A stretch of 55,951 bases of DNA from Dethiobacteria bacterium (lineage in GTDB: Bacteria > Bacillota > Dethiobacteria > DTU022 > UBA8154), in contig JBMNNS010000003.1 in assembly GCA_050942625.1 (NCBI GenBank), positions 1-55,951 of the forward strand, in the 5' to 3' direction. Both the position numbers and the translations under genes were made by a program. Within the stretch, counting starts at the first letter, position 1. Every line of letters starts with the position of its first letter. The notes below the pieces were generated by a model. It worked only from the letters and a program-made list of their open reading frames with translations, made no database searches and was not told the DNA's origin. Below are positions 13,814-20,642 of this stretch, piece after piece.

Positions 13814-14058
13814 GATACATGTCTCCTTAAGAATATAAATAAACAAAATGGTCCTTTTCACTGCCTGCAGGCGACAGCCTAAAATGAAAACTAACAACGA
13901 TAACAGCAATAGCCTATAATAATATTTCTACAATTTGGTTCTATTATCCTGCTATTTATGGTCAACGAACTTTCAGGCACTATGCATGGAATAAAAAGTA
14001 TATTATAATATAGAAAAAATAAAAAGGGTCATTAATTTTGGAAAGGGGACGCAGGACA

Positions 14059-14310
14059 ATGGTTCGTATAGGTGATTTGCGCGACAGGGATGTTGTAAAT
14101 GTAAATGATGGCAAACGCCTGGGTATTATTAATGACGTCGACCTTGATATAGAAAACGGGGTTGTAAAGGCAATTATTGTACCGGCCGGGGGGGGGTTCA
14201 TGGGCGTAATCGGCCGAAAACAAGATCTCATTATCCCCTGGGATAAGATCGTTAAGGTTGGCGTGGACACGATTCTGGTAGATTACCCCGTTGAGCTGGA
14301 ACAGGGCTAA
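14059..14310 (+). CDS. ylmC: YlmC/YmxH PRC-barrel sporulation protein
   Basis: DLRDRDVVNVNDGKRLG...IIPWDKIVKVGVDTILV. Confidence 0.9.
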   Translation: MVRIGDLRDRDVVNVNDGKRLGIINDVDLDIENGVVKAIIVPAGGGFMGVIGRKQDLIIPWDKIVKVGVDTILVDYPVELEQG

Positions 14311-14312
14311 AC

Positions 14313-14341
14313 TGGACAGGACTCCAGGCCTGTTATATAAT
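14313..14341 (+). promoter_or_regulatory. sigma-A promoter upstream of the NrdD-like gene
   Basis: TGGACA-17 bp-TATAAT. Confidence 0.6.
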
Positions 14342-14386
14342 CAAAATAAACGACAAAAGGGGGCCCGTTCCCTGGGGGGTGGTTAT

Positions 14387-16243
14387 TTGACAGATGATAC
14401 TCCTTTCCAAAAGATCATAAAGCGGGATGGAAGGGTGCTCCCATTTCATGCCGAAAAAATAACTCAGGCTATTTTTAAAGCTGCCAGGGCCGTCGGGGGA
14501 GAGGATTATTCGCTGGCAGAAGAGCTTACCAGGGAGGTTTTGGTGTACCTTTCGGGGAAATATTTACCGGGGGTAAGTCCTACGGTTGAAGAAATACAGG
14601 ATGCCGTGGAAAAGACCTTGATAGAAAAAGGACATGCCCGAACGGCTAAAGCCTACATCCTATACAGGGCCAAAAGAACCCGGATTAGGGAAGCAAAGTC
14701 AGAACTAATGGATGTAGTAAAGGATATTCTTATAGAAGGGAACCATGGGGAAAAAGAAGGAAGCGAGTATTCGCCGGCAAAAAAAATGAACCAGGTGGCT
14801 ATTGCTGCCAGCCAAAAATACTATCTTGACAATTTACTCCCTCAAGATCTAGCTGAATCACAGCGGAAGGGGAGTTTTCATATTCATCAATTAGGCTATT
14901 ATAGTAAAACTATTGATTCCCTAAAGGCCGATCTGGCTTCCTATTTTAAGGATATAACCGTTTATGAAAAACATCTAACTGCTCCGGCAGACTTTTCTAC
15001 TGCCCTTTTTAGTATTTCTGCCCTGGCCCAAAAGGCCGGGTGTGACCTTTTTGGAGAGTTATCCTTAGCTTGTTTTGACACTTTTATAAGTTCTTTGAGC
15101 AGCAATTTTGCTAAAAAACCAGGCACCGAGCTCCTTACGGCAAATCTGCGTGGGTTTTTGCATTATTTAAGTGCTTTTCCCTGTTTCGGGGGTACAGCCC
15201 CCCACCCAAAATTTAGTATTGGCCTGGGCCTGGATCTTACTGCTGAAGGCAGGGCAGTCACCCGTATTATATTAGAGGAGTTGATCAGGGGCAAAAAAGC
15301 AGACAGGCAGCCTCCCAAAATTATTTTCAGCCTGCAAAAAGGTATAAATTTGGGGCAAAAAGATCCCAATTATGATCTGTACAAGCTGGCCCTGAAGGCT
15401 GCTCTGGCCTGCGGAAACCCTTCTTTTGTTTTTCTTGATACTTCCTACAACAATTTTCCAGGGGCTGATTCTTCCCATTTTGGTGACGGTTCAAGGGTTG
15501 CAGGGAACAGGTATGCAAAAATGGGGGGCAAAAAAAGGGGTAACATAGCCTCCCTGACTATTAATCTTCCAAGACTTGCCCTTAAAACCAGGGAGCTTGA
15601 TTTGTTTATTGTGGAGTTGGATCGTTTATTACGCCTGGGGGTTCGCCAATTGTTGCATCGCTTTGAGGTCCTGACAGCCTTAAAATGCCGGGAGCTTCCT
15701 GCCTTAATGGGTTGGAACCTCTACCAGGGAAGTGAATCCCTATCCCCGGAAGACAGCATCAAAGAGTCGATAAAAAATGGACTTATGTCCCTTAACTTTA
15801 CAGGGCTTCCAGAAACTATCCGCGTATTATTGGACAAGGACCATGAGGGAATGGCAGGGCGCTATGAATTGGCTAAAAGAATAGTGGGGCATATGAAAAG
15901 ACGTGTAGAATCATTTGCCGAAGAATACGATCTTAATTTCGCCCTTCGCAGCGTGGCCAGCGGGGAACTGAAGCGCCTTGTTGAACTGGATAGGAAAGAA
16001 TTTGGACTTATTAAGGGTGTCACCGACAAATCCTTTTATAGCTCTTCCTTCCTTCTGTTTCAGGAAGACGAAGGGTTGGAGGGGAAAATTGTACTTGAAG
16101 GGGAGATGCATAAGCTTTGTTCGGGCGGATATGCCAGCAAAGCTGTCTTCTTGCCACGCCTGGAGCCCCGGGCAATAGAGGACTTCATTTACAAATTGGT
16201 GGAAGCAGAAATAGGTTTTCTTTCAGTTTTCAAGTTGGGGTGA
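14387..16243 (+). CDS. ATP-cone + degenerate class III ribonucleotide reductase (NrdD)-like protein, apparently non-catalytic
   Basis: N-terminal ATP cone (IIKRDGR...VEEIQDAVEKTL...AKAYILYR). NrdD-like motifs HIHQL, GINL...DPNYDLY, RGNIASLTINLPRLA and GVTDK. No MGCR-type cysteine, Zn ribbon or RxxGY. TTG start after GGGGGTGG. Confidence 0.8.
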   Translation: MTDDTPFQKIIKRDGRVLPFHAEKITQAIFKAARAVGGEDYSLAEELTREVLVYLSGKYLPGVSPTVEEIQDAVEKTLIEKGHARTAKAYILYRAKRTRIREAKSELMDVVKDILIEGNHGEKEGSEYSPAKKMNQVAIAASQKYYLDNLLPQDLAESQRKGSFHIHQLGYYSKTIDSLKADLASYFKDITVYEKHLTAPADFSTALFSISALAQKAGCDLFGELSLACFDTFISSLSSNFAKKPGTELLTANLRGFLHYLSAFPCFGGTAPHPKFSIGLGLDLTAEGRAVTRIILEELIRGKKADRQPPKIIFSLQKGINLGQKDPNYDLYKLALKAALACGNPSFVFLDTSYNNFPGADSSHFGDGSRVAGNRYAKMGGKKRGNIASLTINLPRLALKTRELDLFIVELDRLLRLGVRQLLHRFEVLTALKCRELPALMGWNLYQGSESLSPEDSIKESIKNGLMSLNFTGLPETIRVLLDKDHEGMAGRYELAKRIVGHMKRRVESFAEEYDLNFALRSVASGELKRLVELDRKEFGLIKGVTDKSFYSSSFLLFQEDEGLEGKIVLEGEMHKLCSGGYASKAVFLPRLEPRAIEDFIYKLVEAEIGFLSVFKLG

Positions 16244-16250
16244 GCTTTGG

Positions 16251-17450
16251 ATGGATCTAGATAATTCCCGTTTTAGAAGGAAATTTAGGAGGAAAAGAAG
16301 AAGAAGAACAAGGTTCCAACACCTAAATGTAGTAAAAGGTAATAAGCAAAATACTTCTAGCCTTGCCGCTATTCCCGGTATTTCCGGTCTCAATCAAAAA
16401 GCAATTTGTTACATACTGTTTTTCCTGGCCCTCTTTTTGTTATCGCAGATCCTTTTTGGCTGGGTATGGGGTGCTTTTAAATGCTGTTCTGCTCAAGTAA
16501 CCAGGGTAGGGGAAGGTACCCTTGATGTATCTTTTCCCACCTCCGGCATAATTACTTTTGAAGAAGAAATAGTCCTGGCCCCCTGTGCCGGTTATGTTTA
16601 CCATGAGGTAAAGGAAGGGGAAAGGATCCCTGTAGGAAAACAACTGGCCGTCATAACAGAAACCCCCCTGGAAGAGGGGGATACACTGGATACTAAGGAT
16701 CAGGACGAAGGCACCGGCGCTTTGCAGCAGACCTTAAACTGGTTTTTATATGGTAATAGGAACACTGCGATTGCAGAAGCAAGGACTGTAAATGATTACA
16801 TATCCCAGGATGAAAGAGTAAAGATCTATTCGACCCTGTCAGGGTTGCTCCTTAACGGGGTTGATGGTTGGGAAGGATTTGGGCCCCATACCAGTTTTCC
16901 TTATCTTCCAGAAGAAGATTTGGAAAACGAGGAATATGCCCAACAAAAAATCCACTCCGGGGAAATGATAAATCGTTTTAAGCCCCTGTTCAGGATAGTA
17001 AACAATTACTGTTGGTATTATAGCACGGTCCTGCCTCCCGACATTGGGAACCTTGTTGCCAACAATTCTTCAGTACGTCTTTATTTTCCTTTTGAGCCTG
17101 ATCGCTATGTTGTGGGGGAAAAAGTTGAGGCTAAAATGAATTATGAACACGGAGGGCTGGAAATCACCTGGCGTATCAACAAGGCCGCCGGGGACTTTTA
17201 CAACCATAGGTTTTCCACAGCGGAGGTTGTTTACCATCAACTGGAAGGTATTCTTGTTCCTGCTGGAGCCCTTGTGGAGGTTGGTGGCAAAAAAGGGGTC
17301 TACCTGCTTGAAAAAGGGATAGTTAATTTTCGGGAAGTTGAAATTTTGGGCCATAAAGAGGGTTTTTACCTGGTAAAAAACTTAGAAGTAGACGAACAAA
17401 TCATTGAAAACCCTTCCAGAATGAAGGTAGGACAACGCTATAACTGGTAA
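16251..17450 (+). CDS. HlyD/membrane-fusion-like single-pass protein usually found upstream of yggS
   Basis: N-terminal TM helix, EGERIPVG biotinyl-lipoyl-like segment, VPAGALV...GVY C-terminal motif; conserved position. Confidence 0.7.
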   Translation: MDLDNSRFRRKFRRKRRRRTRFQHLNVVKGNKQNTSSLAAIPGISGLNQKAICYILFFLALFLLSQILFGWVWGAFKCCSAQVTRVGEGTLDVSFPTSGIITFEEEIVLAPCAGYVYHEVKEGERIPVGKQLAVITETPLEEGDTLDTKDQDEGTGALQQTLNWFLYGNRNTAIAEARTVNDYISQDERVKIYSTLSGLLLNGVDGWEGFGPHTSFPYLPEEDLENEEYAQQKIHSGEMINRFKPLFRIVNNYCWYYSTVLPPDIGNLVANNSSVRLYFPFEPDRYVVGEKVEAKMNYEHGGLEITWRINKAAGDFYNHRFSTAEVVYHQLEGILVPAGALVEVGGKKGVYLLEKGIVNFREVEILGHKEGFYLVKNLEVDEQIIENPSRMKVGQRYNW

Positions 17451-17480
17451 TGAAGCTTGCAAAAAAGGTGGGATAAGACT

Positions 17481-18161
17481 ATGGTTTATAGCAATAACTA
17501 TCAAAAAATCCAGAAAGGTGTGCAGCGGGCTGCAGCTAAAAGAGGTATTTCACCGCAGGACATTACCCTTGTTGCTATCAGTAAAAATGTAGCAGTAAAA
17601 TCCATTCAAAATGCCTATGAGCTGGGTATTAATAACTTTGGGGAGAATAGGGTCCAGGAGGCCCTGCCAAAAATTAAAGCACTGCCGGCCGGGATTCGCT
17701 GGCATTTCGTGGGCCACCTGCAAACTAATAAAGTAAAGTTTGTTCTTCCTTCTTTTAGCCTTATTCATTCCCTGGATCGCTATAGACTGGCCCAGGTCCT
17801 GCAGGAGGAAGGGGCAAAAAGGGATCAAAAAGTAGATGTATTACTGCAGGTTAATATTGCCGGGGAGAAAAGTAAGCATGGTTTCCAACAGGCGGAAGTG
17901 CAGGATGTTTTACAGGAAGTTTCTACTTATAGCCACCTGAGAGTAAGGGGCCTGATGACCATTGCTCCTTTCGTGCCCAATCCGGAAGAAGTGCGGCCTT
18001 ATTTTCGCACTCTTTACTGTTTGTTTAAAAGTATAAATATTCCTGAAGTTGAAATGAAGTATCTTTCCATGGGTATGACCAACGATTATGAAGTAGCAAT
18101 CGAAGAGGGTTCAAATATGATCCGGCTGGGTACCGCCCTCTTTGGAGACAGGGATCAATAA
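17481..18161 (+). CDS. yggS: YggS/YlmE PLP homeostasis protein
   Basis: VAISK, FGENRVQE, WHFVGHLQTNK, LSMGMTNDY and IRLGTALFG motifs. Confidence 0.95.
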   Translation: MVYSNNYQKIQKGVQRAAAKRGISPQDITLVAISKNVAVKSIQNAYELGINNFGENRVQEALPKIKALPAGIRWHFVGHLQTNKVKFVLPSFSLIHSLDRYRLAQVLQEEGAKRDQKVDVLLQVNIAGEKSKHGFQQAEVQDVLQEVSTYSHLRVRGLMTIAPFVPNPEEVRPYFRTLYCLFKSINIPEVEMKYLSMGMTNDYEVAIEEGSNMIRLGTALFGDRDQ

Positions 18162-18179
18162 TTTTGGAAGGTGACTAGC

Positions 18180-18602
18180 ATGAATTTTTGGGAAAGAATC
18201 TTAAGCGGCCTCGGTTTTTTGGAAGAAGAAAGAGAAGGACAGCTGGAGCTTGATAAAGGAAATAAACAATTCTGGAGAAAAGACAATGTTGTCAATTTTC
18301 CCTCGCCTGGGGAGAATTATCGTCTTGTAGTGGTTACCCCGGAAAGCTTTGGAGAAGTTGAAAAAATGGGTGAACAGCTGAAAAAAAAGCGTACCCTGGT
18401 CGTAAACTTTGAGAACATGGATGCCGGTGAAGCCAAAAGGACAGTTGATTTTTTAAGCGGGGTAACTTTTGCCTTGAACGGCAGTTTACAAAAAATTAGC
18501 CAGGAGATATTTGTTTTTGCCCCAGCAGGGGTTACCCTTAATTCAGATTTTCAGGTGCAGCTCACTGAAAGGGACTTCCGCCTAAAGGATACAGATGAAT
18601 AA
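18180..18602 (+). CDS. sepF: cell division protein SepF
   Basis: VVNFE...AKRTVDFLSGVTFALNG...IFVFAP; synteny. Confidence 0.9.
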   Translation: MNFWERILSGLGFLEEEREGQLELDKGNKQFWRKDNVVNFPSPGENYRLVVVTPESFGEVEKMGEQLKKKRTLVVNFENMDAGEAKRTVDFLSGVTFALNGSLQKISQEIFVFAPAGVTLNSDFQVQLTERDFRLKDTDE

Positions 18603-18631
18603 AATCATACTTGAAAGGGCGGTGCCACGTC

Positions 18632-18895
18632 ATGCTAAGGGATATGGTTTCTGCATTGTTCGATATTTTTTACTATTTAATATTAATTCGCATTATCCTG
18701 AGTTTTTTCCCTGTTAGTCCTTATGCCAATCCTACCCTTGCTAATATCATCTATTTTTTAAGGCAGTTAACAGAACCATTTTTGGCCCCTTTCCGGAAAA
18801 TTGTACCACCTCTACGGATGGGACTTGATCTATCCCCCATTTTGGCCCTCATTGTTTTAAGGCTTATCCGCAATTTTTTATTGACAATACTATAA
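18632..18895 (+). CDS. yggT: YggT/YlmG membrane protein
   Basis: LTEPFLAPFRK...LDLSPI motif. Confidence 0.9.
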   Translation: MLRDMVSALFDIFYYLILIRIILSFFPVSPYANPTLANIIYFLRQLTEPFLAPFRKIVPPLRMGLDLSPILALIVLRLIRNFLLTIL

Positions 18896-18902
18896 AGGGT
18901 GA

Positions 18903-19706
18903 ATGGATATGGCTATCTTCAACGAAAAACCGTCCTTAAATTATACTTCTCCAGCCGAAGAAAAATGGGCCAATCATCTATGGGCCTTGTTAGAAAAGGC
19001 TGCAGAAATAAATGTAGAACAATGGACCTTTTTTGCCGACCCCAGGCAACAGCAAATTGCCCGGGAATTACTGCAGCATTTTCCCATGCTAAAATGTTCT
19101 TTTTTTGGTGGGTATCCGGAGGCTGAAAGGGTAAGGATTTGTTTTTCGCCCTTCGCTGTCTCAGAACTCCCGGAAGGGGTAATTAGTTGTCTTAGCATTG
19201 AAGGTAGCTTTCCGGAGGGGACATTGACGCACAGGGATTTTTTGGGGGCGGTGCTGGGGCTTGGTATTAAAAGGGAAATGGTTGGGGATATCATTTACAG
19301 GGGTGGGAAGAAAGCCTTCCTTTTATTAACGGCTGGCTTGAAGCCTTTTGTATTGAGCAACCTGCAGGCAATAGGCAATTTTACCGTTAGCGTTACAGAA
19401 GTCCCCCTGGAAAATTTAGGAGAACAGTTTGGCCCTCCCCGTGTTAAGAAAATTAAAGGAACGGTAGCTTCTATGAGGCTTGATGCCGTTGCTGGCCTGG
19501 GATTCGGCCTTTCCCGTTCTAAAATAGCTCCCCTGGTGAAGGGTGGGCAGGTTAAGGTTAACTACCAGTTAGTGAACCAGCCCTCCCGTGTTGTCAAAAT
19601 TGGAGACCTTGTTTCACTCGCTGGCAGAGGAAGATTTGAAATCGTTGATACTATGGGAGAAACCCGGAAAGGCAGGATCCATCTTCTACTGCATCGTTTT
19701 CTTTAA
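18903..19706 (+). CDS. ylmH: YlmH S4-domain RNA-binding protein
   Basis: GGYPEAER, HRDFLGA, MRLDAV and GRGR motifs. Confidence 0.9.
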   Translation: MDMAIFNEKPSLNYTSPAEEKWANHLWALLEKAAEINVEQWTFFADPRQQQIARELLQHFPMLKCSFFGGYPEAERVRICFSPFAVSELPEGVISCLSIEGSFPEGTLTHRDFLGAVLGLGIKREMVGDIIYRGGKKAFLLLTAGLKPFVLSNLQAIGNFTVSVTEVPLENLGEQFGPPRVKKIKGTVASMRLDAVAGLGFGLSRSKIAPLVKGGQVKVNYQLVNQPSRVVKIGDLVSLAGRGRFEIVDTMGETRKGRIHLLLHRFL

Positions 19707-19804
19707 TGGAAACATTTTACTTGTTAGCAGGAATAGGGCGTTGGCTGTCGAAAAACCATAGATAAACAATTTTTTACCAATGCCATGGATAAGGAGTGAG
19801 TTAT

Positions 19805-20299
19805 GTGAGTTTATTGCCTTTGGATATACAGAATAAGGAGTTTGAGAAATCCTTTCGTGGCTACAAGACGGAAGAAGTAGATGAATTTTTGGAACAAATC
19901 TCAAGGAAGATGGAGGAGCTGATCAAGGAAAAAATAAGCCTGGAAGAAAAAATTGGACATCTGGAGGAAATGTTGAGCCAGTATCAAAAATTGGAAGACA
20001 CCCTTCACAATGCCATAATTGTTGCTCAGGAGGCCGCAGAAGACGTGAAGCGGAATGCCAACAAGGAGGCAGAATTGATCCGGCGTGAAGCGGAAAAAGA
20101 GGCCCAGCGCACTACGGAGGAGGCCCGTTACAAGGCAAGCCGCATCCTGGCCGAACATGAGGAGGTTTATAAGCAGGCCCAGGTTTTCAAACTTCGTTTC
20201 CGATCTTTTATAGAAGCCCAGCTTGCCTCCTTGGAGCTGGAGGACTGGCTGCACGTTGAACAAGACGAGGAAGAGGTAGACCTTCGGGACATTAGCTAG
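19805..20299 (+). CDS. divIVA: DivIVA
   Basis: PLDIQNKEFEKSFRGYKTEEVDEFL followed by coiled coil; GTG after AAGGAG. Confidence 0.93.
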   Translation: MSLLPLDIQNKEFEKSFRGYKTEEVDEFLEQISRKMEELIKEKISLEEKIGHLEEMLSQYQKLEDTLHNAIIVAQEAAEDVKRNANKEAELIRREAEKEAQRTTEEARYKASRILAEHEEVYKQAQVFKLRFRSFIEAQLASLELEDWLHVEQDEEEVDLRDIS

Positions 20300-20318
20300 C
20301 ATTTTTGTATTTTTAGGC

Positions 20319-20347
20319 TTGAAATCGGGCATAATAACGTTTATAAT
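20319..20347 (+). promoter_or_regulatory. sigma-A promoter of the ileS leader
   Basis: TTGAAA-17 bp-TATAAT. Confidence 0.7.
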
Positions 20348-20370
20348 TTTTTTATAAAATTATTTGTCAT

Positions 20371-20642
20371 AAAAACTATGAACGGGAGAGTAAGCGTTTT
20401 CATAGCTTTTTTAGCGAGCCGGGCAGGGTGAAAAGCCGGTAAAGCAGGGACGCCGAAGATCACCCGGGAGTTCTTTTTTCCAAAGCCAGATTGTGATTTG
20501 GGCAATAGCAATGGTTAGTAGAAAAAAGCGTACACAGCTGCGTTAAGCTGCCTAAGGGGTTGTGGCCTTCCGGGCTATAACAACTCAGGGTGGTAACGCG
20601 GGTAAATATCTCGTCCCTGTCAAGGCGGGATTTTATTTTTTT
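20371..20642 (+). ncRNA. T-box riboswitch (Ile)
   Basis: AGTA and AGCGAG..GGTGAAA stem I motifs; specifier GAAG-ATC (Ile) at 20459-20461; T-box AGGGTGGTAACGCG at ~20587-20600; terminator followed by a T-run; directly upstream of ileS. Confidence 0.92.

Follow-up and report, generated by a model that had tools for sequence, protein, structure and literature searches.

The gene and its missing catalytic parts

The stretch of DNA analysed here, called the window throughout, comprises 55,951 nucleotides (nt) from a Dethiobacteria bacterium (assembly GCA_050942625.1, contig JBMNNS010000003.1, positions 1 to 55,951, forward strand). It carries a homologue of nrdD, the gene of the anaerobic, class III ribonucleotide reductase (RNR), that has an intact reading frame and lacks the catalytic parts of the enzyme. 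This coding sequence, below dead nrdD, lies on the plus strand at 14387..16243, with a TTG start at 14387 and a TGA stop at 16241-16243, and encodes a protein of 618 amino acids (aa); the assignment draws on the open reading frame (ORF) list, the translation, Pfam and NCBIfam. A sigma-70-like promoter precedes it on the same strand at 14313..14341, with TGGACA at 14313-14318, a 17-nt spacer and TATAAT at 14336-14341, and this element is the top sigma-70-like match (11/12) in a scan of 13900-20500. A G-rich run resembling a Shine-Dalgarno (SD) sequence follows at 14374..14382 (+), 4 nt ahead of the start codon, and the downstream ORF begins at 16251, 7 nt after the stop. The translation holds HIHQL, DPNYDLY, RGNIASLTINLPRLA, GVTDK, HFGDGSRV and TIDSLKADL and ends in IGFLSVFKLG; an identical 618-aa entry (P0002) exists in the protein collection. 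The ORF, the promoter, the SD, the gap, the motifs and the C-terminus had been described in the original prediction, and each was located again in our analysis; its observation of an intact NrdD homologue without catalytic parts is confirmed.

Two domains account for nearly the whole chain. The ATP-cone (14411..14680, +; residues 9-98) is recognized by Pfam PF03477 with an E-value of 3e-23 and 82.5 bits, and the NrdD alpha/beta-barrel core (14765..16225, +; residues 127-613) by Pfam PF13597 (NRDD) with 222 bits. The latter match runs from position 6 to position 503 of a 562-position profile, whose C-terminal part has no counterpart in the protein; the chain comes to its end with the last barrel strand, which is the boundary between the core and the glycyl-radical domain. 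Every NCBIfam cut-off for an NrdD equivalog is missed widely: the best model, PRK07111, gives 409 bits against a cut-off of 764, and TIGR02487 gives 218 bits against 326.

The closest known system is the working NrdD of the formate-type ATP-cone branch (PRK07111; Prevotella copri structures 8p23, 8p27, 8p28 and 8p2c), which has the same fold and the same order of ATP-cone, linker and ten-stranded barrel, and the P. copri enzyme is the best match to dead NrdD among solved structures (E-value 4e-57). An AlphaFold2 model built from an 86-sequence alignment reaches a mean predicted local distance difference test score (pLDDT) of 87.1. With this predicted structure as query, the top Foldseek hits were the P. 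copri NrdD chains (8p2c; E-value 4e-40, template modelling (TM) score 0.77), followed by the NrdD proteins of S. thermophilus, T4 and T. maritima. According to the accessible part of PMC11226230, the working cysteines of the P. copri enzyme are Cys416 on the finger loop, which carries the thiyl radical, and Cys171 on the first strand, and Gly711 lies in the C-terminal radical domain behind the Zn site. The same part of that source names an NxN flap (114-116), loop 2 (Arg305, Gln309) and Glu581 as the other working parts.

These sites were compared between 79 distinct short (dead) homologues and 41 full-length relatives. When dead NrdD is aligned by phmmer with P. copri NrdD (8p23), its FGDGSRV stands opposite MGCRTRV, so that the codon of Asp367 (15485..15487, +) occupies the place of the thiyl-radical Cys416. 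This finger-loop column is Cys in 41/41 full-length proteins; among the dead homologues it is Asn in 43, Ser in 21, Asp in 8, Gly in 3, Thr in 3 and Cys in 1. The arginine next to it is replaced by Gly in 78/79 dead homologues. The place of the second catalytic cysteine of the formate-type mechanism, Cys171 on the first barrel strand, is taken by Ser178 (codon 14918..14920, +), as read from the homologue column, which is Ser in 79/79 dead homologues and Cys in 40/41 full-length relatives. The NxN flap, the Arg and Gln of loop 2, the TPAEG glutamate and the hairpin of the specificity site (s-site) are all replaced or relaxed in the dead clade. Such identical losses recurring in 79 distinct homologues are far more than chance would give.

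The original prediction that the finger-loop Cys, the N-terminal Cys, the Zn ribbon and the RxxGY loop are all lost is thus borne out by the 8p23 alignment, the homologue columns and the point at which the chain ends. Compared with a working NrdD of the PRK07111 type, the protein lacks the radical domain, the Zn ribbon, both cysteines, the flap, the loop 2 Arg/Gln, the TPAEG glutamate and an adjacent nrdG. Its homology to NrdD notwithstanding, it should not be filed as an RNR, because every tested feature of the working enzyme fails. No separate glycyl-radical piece was found when the C-terminal 90 aa of a full-length relative were searched against the genome of the window, in a 92.8%-complete assembly and with no positive control.

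Conservation, selection and RNA-library contigs

The homologue set consisted of 121 proteins, the query and the best 120 of 7725 matches. The MGCR, CxxC and RxxGY motifs are all missing from 55 of them, a count that includes the query and its identical twin, and neither the CxxC of the Zn ribbon nor the RxxGY of the glycyl-radical loop occurs in any of these short proteins. The remaining 66 all have MGCR, and 64 of them match the pattern RxxG[YFW]; the two misses are P0055, which reads TGYLS in its tail, and P0060, a partial record.

For brevity, the family of the window in the Genome Taxonomy Database (GTDB) is denoted f1, and f2, f3, f5, f7 and f8 are other families of the class, f5 being its neighbour. 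The dead form is present in 32/33 f1 genomes, the sole genome without it being 79% complete. Of these copies, 28 are whole stop-free frames of 620-653 aa and 4 are fragmented at contig ends; their identity to the window copy is 46-62% across 12 genera. Among the 25 closest pairs, the ratio of nonsynonymous to synonymous substitution rates (dN/dS; method of Nei and Gojobori, NG86) lies at 0.060-0.138 when the whole gene is taken, at 0.00-0.16 in the cone and at 0.055-0.159 in the core. For the neighbours, these pairs of genomes give 0.07-0.11 (ylmE), 0.05-0.09 (ileS) and 0.14-0.33 (the HlyD-like gene). Dead nrdD is kept in f1 by purifying selection, at the level of its housekeeping neighbours, and the reading of the gene as a decaying pseudogene was rejected on the dN/dS values together with the intact frames throughout the family. 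The original prediction had named, as evidence against itself, a full NrdD at this position in close relatives combined with neutral evolution of the window copy; a full NrdD does stand there in relatives, but the window copy is not neutral. The family-wide conservation, the purifying selection and the site-by-site loss give strong support to its core proposal, that of a pseudo-enzyme which is intact but catalytically dead and whose ATP-cone is conserved.

The distribution of constraint along the chain has changed. Expressed as mean pairwise identity, overall conservation is 0.58 in the dead clade and 0.72 in the full-length clade, and the catalytic and specificity elements fall well below this in the former: 0.33 versus 0.81 for the flap, 0.35 versus 0.81 for the s-site region, 0.44 versus 0.86 for loop 2 and 0.48 versus 0.81 for the finger loop. 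The ATP-cone, in contrast, reaches 0.77 in the dead clade versus 0.69 in the full-length clade, the linker helix 0.86 versus 0.80, the first core helix 0.79 versus 0.78 and helix 404-442 0.80 versus 0.67. The tightest constraint therefore no longer lies on the parts that serve catalysis and specificity but on the ATP-cone, the linker, the first core helix and helix 404-442.

The conserved parts have counterparts in the regulation of the P. copri enzyme. In PMC11226230, two nucleotides are described as held in the cone by Lys7, Arg8, Arg11, Tyr83, Arg87 and Arg91. In the 8p23 alignment these residues correspond to K12, R13, R16, Y93, R97 and R101 of dead NrdD, which are retained in 76-79 of the 79 dead homologues. 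The same portion of that source reports that P. copri ATP-cones self-associate and dock on core helices of another dimer, and that within the tetramer with bound dATP another dimer's cone docks on two helices, one of them 458-485. By the same alignment, helix 404-430 of dead NrdD corresponds to this P. copri helix. It is the retention of the cone residues together with the conservation of the putative docking helix that suggests a scaffold responsive to ATP and dATP.

Four metatranscriptomic libraries, from four studies of biogas and bioreactor samples, supplied assembled contigs for a comparison with positions 13900-17500 of the window, of which individual runs left parts uncovered. Contigs from all 4 studies match dead nrdD without differences, and the junction with the HlyD-like gene is spanned in 4/4 runs. 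In two studies contigs start at 14348 and 14358, just past the predicted -10 box, which is a weak hint that they mark the transcription start. One contig (X18, depth 4.1) has an additional A in the A8 run at 14778-14786 within the gene; it is absent from the other three runs and is probably an assembly or sequencing error.

Origin in place, replacement enzymes and repeated erosion

Upstream of dead nrdD lies ylmC/ymxH (14038..14310, +), encoding a PRC-barrel sporulation protein (Pfam PRC, NCBIfam TIGR02888), and downstream a gene for an HlyD-like putative membrane-fusion protein (16251..17450, +; Pfam HlyD_2, with NCBIfam TIGR02828 below its cut-off), followed by ylmE/yggS, sepF, yggT, ylmH and divIVA (17457..20299, +; Pfam), which stand in the same order beside a working nrdD in relatives. 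The closest full-length relatives, of about 698 aa and 44-47% identity, are encoded at this very position in further families of the class and also outside it. Their gene order is ylmC-nrdR-nrdD-nrdG-pgeF(ylmD)-HlyD-like-ylmE-sepF-yggT-ylmH-divIVA-ileS, the identities of NrdR, NrdG, PgeF and IleS having been checked against NCBIfam. The gene nrdG adjoins nrdD in 45/60 loci of the full-length tier and in 0/21 dead-form loci. The orthologues with the same losses and synteny that the original prediction proposed to look for were found across f1.

Dead nrdD arose in place from the resident class III nrdD of the PRK07111 type. The dead clade is monophyletic, with a Shimodaira-Hasegawa approximate likelihood ratio test (SH-aLRT) value of 100, and of 99 in a tree with more rows; its stem is long (0.54-0.67) and the outgroup distant, and the tree does not show it nested inside the full-length clade. 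The origin in place rests on synteny because the rooting of the tree is unsafe. In the only f5 genome sampled, a 574-aa, more eroded form, which has also lost RGNIA and FQEDEG, lies between nrdR and pgeF, and its presence at the same locus suggests that the loss event predates the split of f1 and f5. The original prediction had further linked the protein to cell division. This link rests on gene order, which is uninformative here: since a working nrdR-nrdD-nrdG operon occupies the same place, between ylmC and the HlyD-like gene, in related families, the division-cluster context is inherited and was rejected as a functional clue.

Two side observations concern this locus. The gene pgeF, encoding the peptidoglycan editing factor (TIGR00726), is kept between dead nrdD and the HlyD-like gene in 13 of 21 dead-form loci, is absent from 5, namely the window (where only the gap 16244-16250 remains), L016, L017, L022 and L030, and cannot be judged in 3. 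Several metagenome-assembled genome records with a Bacillota-type locus (L012, L016, L018, L022, L025 and L036) are titled Desulfovibrio or Desulfovibrionaceae, and these are probably mislabelled bins.

The enzymatic function is covered elsewhere in these genomes. The genome of the window encodes a second NrdD on contig C19; this protein has 689 aa and shows a CC finger loop, a CxxC motif and RVVGFY. It belongs to the PRK08270 type (1062 bits against a cut-off of 548) and shares 28% identity with the dead copy and 29-31% with the syntenic full-length type. The only NrdG2 activase of this genome is encoded on contig C48. The original prediction had noted that the window is without nrdG, which holds, and had proposed a check of the genome for a canonical nrdD and nrdG; both are present on these other contigs. 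Every one of the 26 sampled f1 genomes, as well as the f5 genome, encodes an NrdD of the PRK08270 type (at least 63% identity). A 49%-identical PRK08270-type NrdD is present in two f2 genomes in addition to the syntenic one, and the other sampled genomes have only full-length matches of 29-34% identity to this type. An RNR of the PF02867 family (class I/II) is present in 23/26 sampled f1 genomes and in 49/53 f2 genomes; none was found in the 92.8%-complete assembly of the window, where the PRK08270-type NrdD is the sole working RNR seen. In several genomes, including those of L067, L072 and L073, NrdD or PF02867 RNR frames reach about 1100-1250 aa with a split or late-starting Pfam match, probably owing to inteins.

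The regulation of the locus has changed as well. The regulator gene nrdR stands directly upstream of nrdD in 47/53 f2, 5/5 f3, 23/23 f7 and 6/6 f8 genomes. In f1 it occurs in 8/26 genomes, as 6 whole genes directly before dead nrdD and 2 remnants (G072:C42:18001-18171 and G017:C16:3266-3373), and it was not found in the other 18/26 sampled genomes of the family or in the genome of the window. Candidate NrdR boxes were sought as 16-mers with at most 3 mismatches from an NrdR-box consensus. Such 16-mers lie upstream of nrdR in 35/52 full-length loci scanned, and several read exactly ACACAATATATTGTGT. This palindrome is found upstream of nrdR in L034, L042, L043, L055, L061, L066 and others, about 545-825 nt before nrdD and sometimes with a second copy 31 nt away, and would fit an NrdR box through which the nrdR-nrdD-nrdG operon is autoregulated. 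In 19 dead-form loci the scan gave a single weak match, inside another gene. The sole match in the window (3 mismatches) lies about 930 nt upstream within a Sir2-family gene and was taken as chance.

Erosion of the resident nrdD is not limited to f1 and f5. Within the class, degeneration occurred independently in two to three more lineages. L033 (7854-9887) and P0120 are sister to three working genes within the full-length clade (SH-aLRT 100); in both, the first catalytic Cys is Ser and the radical domain is gone, and the finger-loop Cys is Ser in L033 and still Cys in P0120. The form of genus g28 (L054 and L132-L134; genomes G085, G095 and G107) is 682 aa long, has the same Cys-to-Ser change with altered flap and loop 2, and keeps the finger-loop Cys (GCG), the Zn ribbon and a Gly loop reading RVSGR, in which Tyr is replaced by Arg. 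Its locus has neither nrdG nor nrdR, and its dN/dS is 0.10-0.12. In both lineages where this could be measured, the remnant is under selection. L044 (7872-9932) has kept both cysteines and its chain ends before the Zn ribbon; its locus lacks nrdG and pgeF and continues directly with the HlyD-like gene. Either a very recent deletion or a fault of the assembly may be behind this form. In the genomes of L033, L054 and L044 no further gene of the NrdD family is present, but a PF02867 RNR is. The erosion of the resident NrdD alongside another RNR is a repeated event in the class.

Possible roles of the radical-less protein

On balance we favour the reading, drawn from sequence comparison, that dead NrdD is a non-catalytic descendant of the PRK07111 type that acts as a regulatory or scaffold protein responsive to ATP and dATP. 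The gene at the ylmC-nrdR-nrdD-nrdG-pgeF locus was stripped of the glycyl-radical domain, along with nrdG, in an ancestor of f1, probably also that of f5, and both cysteines, the NxN flap, loop 2 and the specificity-site hairpin went as well. A divergent PRK08270-type NrdD with its own activase, joined in most genomes by a PF02867 RNR, is available for the supply of deoxyribonucleoside triphosphates (dNTPs), and the remnant has been retained intact in the 12 genera by purifying selection. Its cone would still bind ATP and dATP, and what selection preserves would be a nucleotide-dependent change in conformation or oligomeric state of the cone-plus-barrel scaffold. The first candidate partner would be the working NrdD, to which the N-terminal region of about 230 residues, including the cone, is 41% identical. 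The idea of a (d)NTP sensor or regulatory partner, put forward in the original prediction, remains plausible.

Several observations weigh against this reading. Pfam finds no DNA-binding or other added output domain in the protein; the conserved helices may reflect folding alone; and some relatives may not be fully dead, as the g28 form keeps the finger-loop Cys and the Gly loop. The gene context, being inherited, gives no independent functional clue. The RNA contigs can derive from DNA carryover and cannot prove transcription, strand or ends. Moreover, since nrdR and a PF02867 RNR were not found in the 92.8%-complete assembly of the window, these cannot be the target of dead NrdD there.

A resemblance to NrdR deserves mention, as NrdR is a non-enzyme whose ATP-cone reads ATP and dATP and is encoded directly upstream in relatives. 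However, NrdR (TIGR00244) has a DNA-binding Zn ribbon, whereas dead NrdD has none and carries a 500-residue barrel instead; TIGR00244 was not among its NCBIfam matches, and an NrdR-like role was rejected for lack of a DNA-binding domain in Pfam. The betaherpesvirus proteins M45 and UL45 are inactive homologues of the RNR R1 subunit whose scaffold has been reused, non-enzymatically, to act on host cell-death signalling. Those proteins are viral and derive from class I R1, whereas dead NrdD is bacterial, belongs to class III and keeps the allosteric ATP-cone. Our full-text literature searches, whose coverage did not extend to subscription journals and supplements, returned no description of a radical-less NrdD, and the accessible parts of the family-wide surveys PMC9669993 and PMC11528403 make no mention of the dead form.

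Other explanations agree with part of these data. As a narrower version of the favoured reading, dead NrdD could be an allosteric partner of the PRK08270-type NrdD, the cones pairing or docking on the core in a dATP-dependent manner and thereby tuning inhibition. The working enzyme co-occurs with it in 26/26 sampled f1 genomes, the two proteins share the N-terminal likeness noted above, P. copri cones behave in this way toward another dimer (in the accessible part of PMC11226230), and no core element of the dead clade is better conserved than the docking-equivalent helix. Nevertheless, so specific a partnership seems rather improbable to us: the overall identity of the two proteins is only 28% and they belong to different NrdD subfamilies, their genes are unlinked (contigs C128 and C19), and independent degenerate forms occur in G127-G129, genomes without any other NrdD-family gene. 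Another explanation is a structural or moonlighting role with the ylm division-sporulation cluster, for instance with YlmC or the HlyD-like protein, which the ancestral enzyme would already have had and which would be independent of dNTP metabolism. That several lineages independently kept the scaffold once catalysis had gone would fit such a second ancestral function. The invariant position between ylmC and the HlyD-like gene, the 7-nt gap in the window and the RNA-library contigs that cross the junction in every run are in line with such a role. We regard it as unlikely, since the ancestral nrdR-nrdD-nrdG operon by itself accounts for the position, pgeF intervenes in 13/18 dead-form loci with both flanks visible, and the strongest constraint falls on the nucleotide-binding cone.

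That the protein is still an enzyme, with a new non-radical chemistry of newly fixed residues such as Ser178 or the LFQEDEGL motif, appears very unlikely. Ser178 is indeed invariant (79/79), the dead clade conserves a new acidic motif, FQEDEG, at a place where PVYYA-like sequences stand in full-length relatives, and the core has a dN/dS of about 0.1. The finger-loop position, however, varies among N, S, D, G and T, the core nucleotide-binding elements checked (flap, loop 2, TPAEG Glu and s-site hairpin) are relaxed or lost, and the f5 form has discarded RGNIA and FQEDEG too. Least probable of all is that the gene is a pseudogene about to be lost, or that it encodes a split enzyme whose glycyl-radical piece comes from a separate gene; the data on selection already contradict this. 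The truncation falls exactly at the domain boundary in a locus without nrdG, and a spare part of this kind, GrcA, exists for pyruvate formate-lyase. Against this stand a dN/dS of about 0.1 in 12 genera, the absence of internal stops from 28/28 whole copies and the fruitless search for the 90-aa radical domain in the 92.8%-complete genome, made with no positive control; a radical donor would, besides, have nothing to act on, because both cysteines and the substrate-binding elements are gone.

A broader proposal reaches beyond f1. The resident NrdD of the class might have had a second, non-catalytic job for its cone and barrel, perhaps the control, in response to nucleotides, of another RNR or of a ylm/division-cluster process. 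This would explain why the scaffold was independently retained in three to four lineages after its chemistry had become redundant, and we offer it as a tentative possibility. If it is true, the case would be seen at its purest in the family of the window, where a dead radical enzyme would have become a sensor dedicated to ATP/dATP.

Whichever role it has, the protein matters for the annotation of these genomes. The source databases name such proteins "anaerobic ribonucleoside-triphosphate reductase", and so, for these bacteria of anaerobic digesters and soda lakes, reconstructions of metabolism include an enzyme that is absent at this locus. The ancestral locus, the replacement enzymes, the intermediates and the end state are all found within one class, which makes this a clean natural experiment in the conversion of a radical enzyme into a pseudo-enzyme. 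If dead NrdD is an ATP/dATP sensor, then signalling by the ATP-cone would extend beyond RNRs and NrdR, and the conformational output of the cone would become testable without radical chemistry or anaerobic activation.

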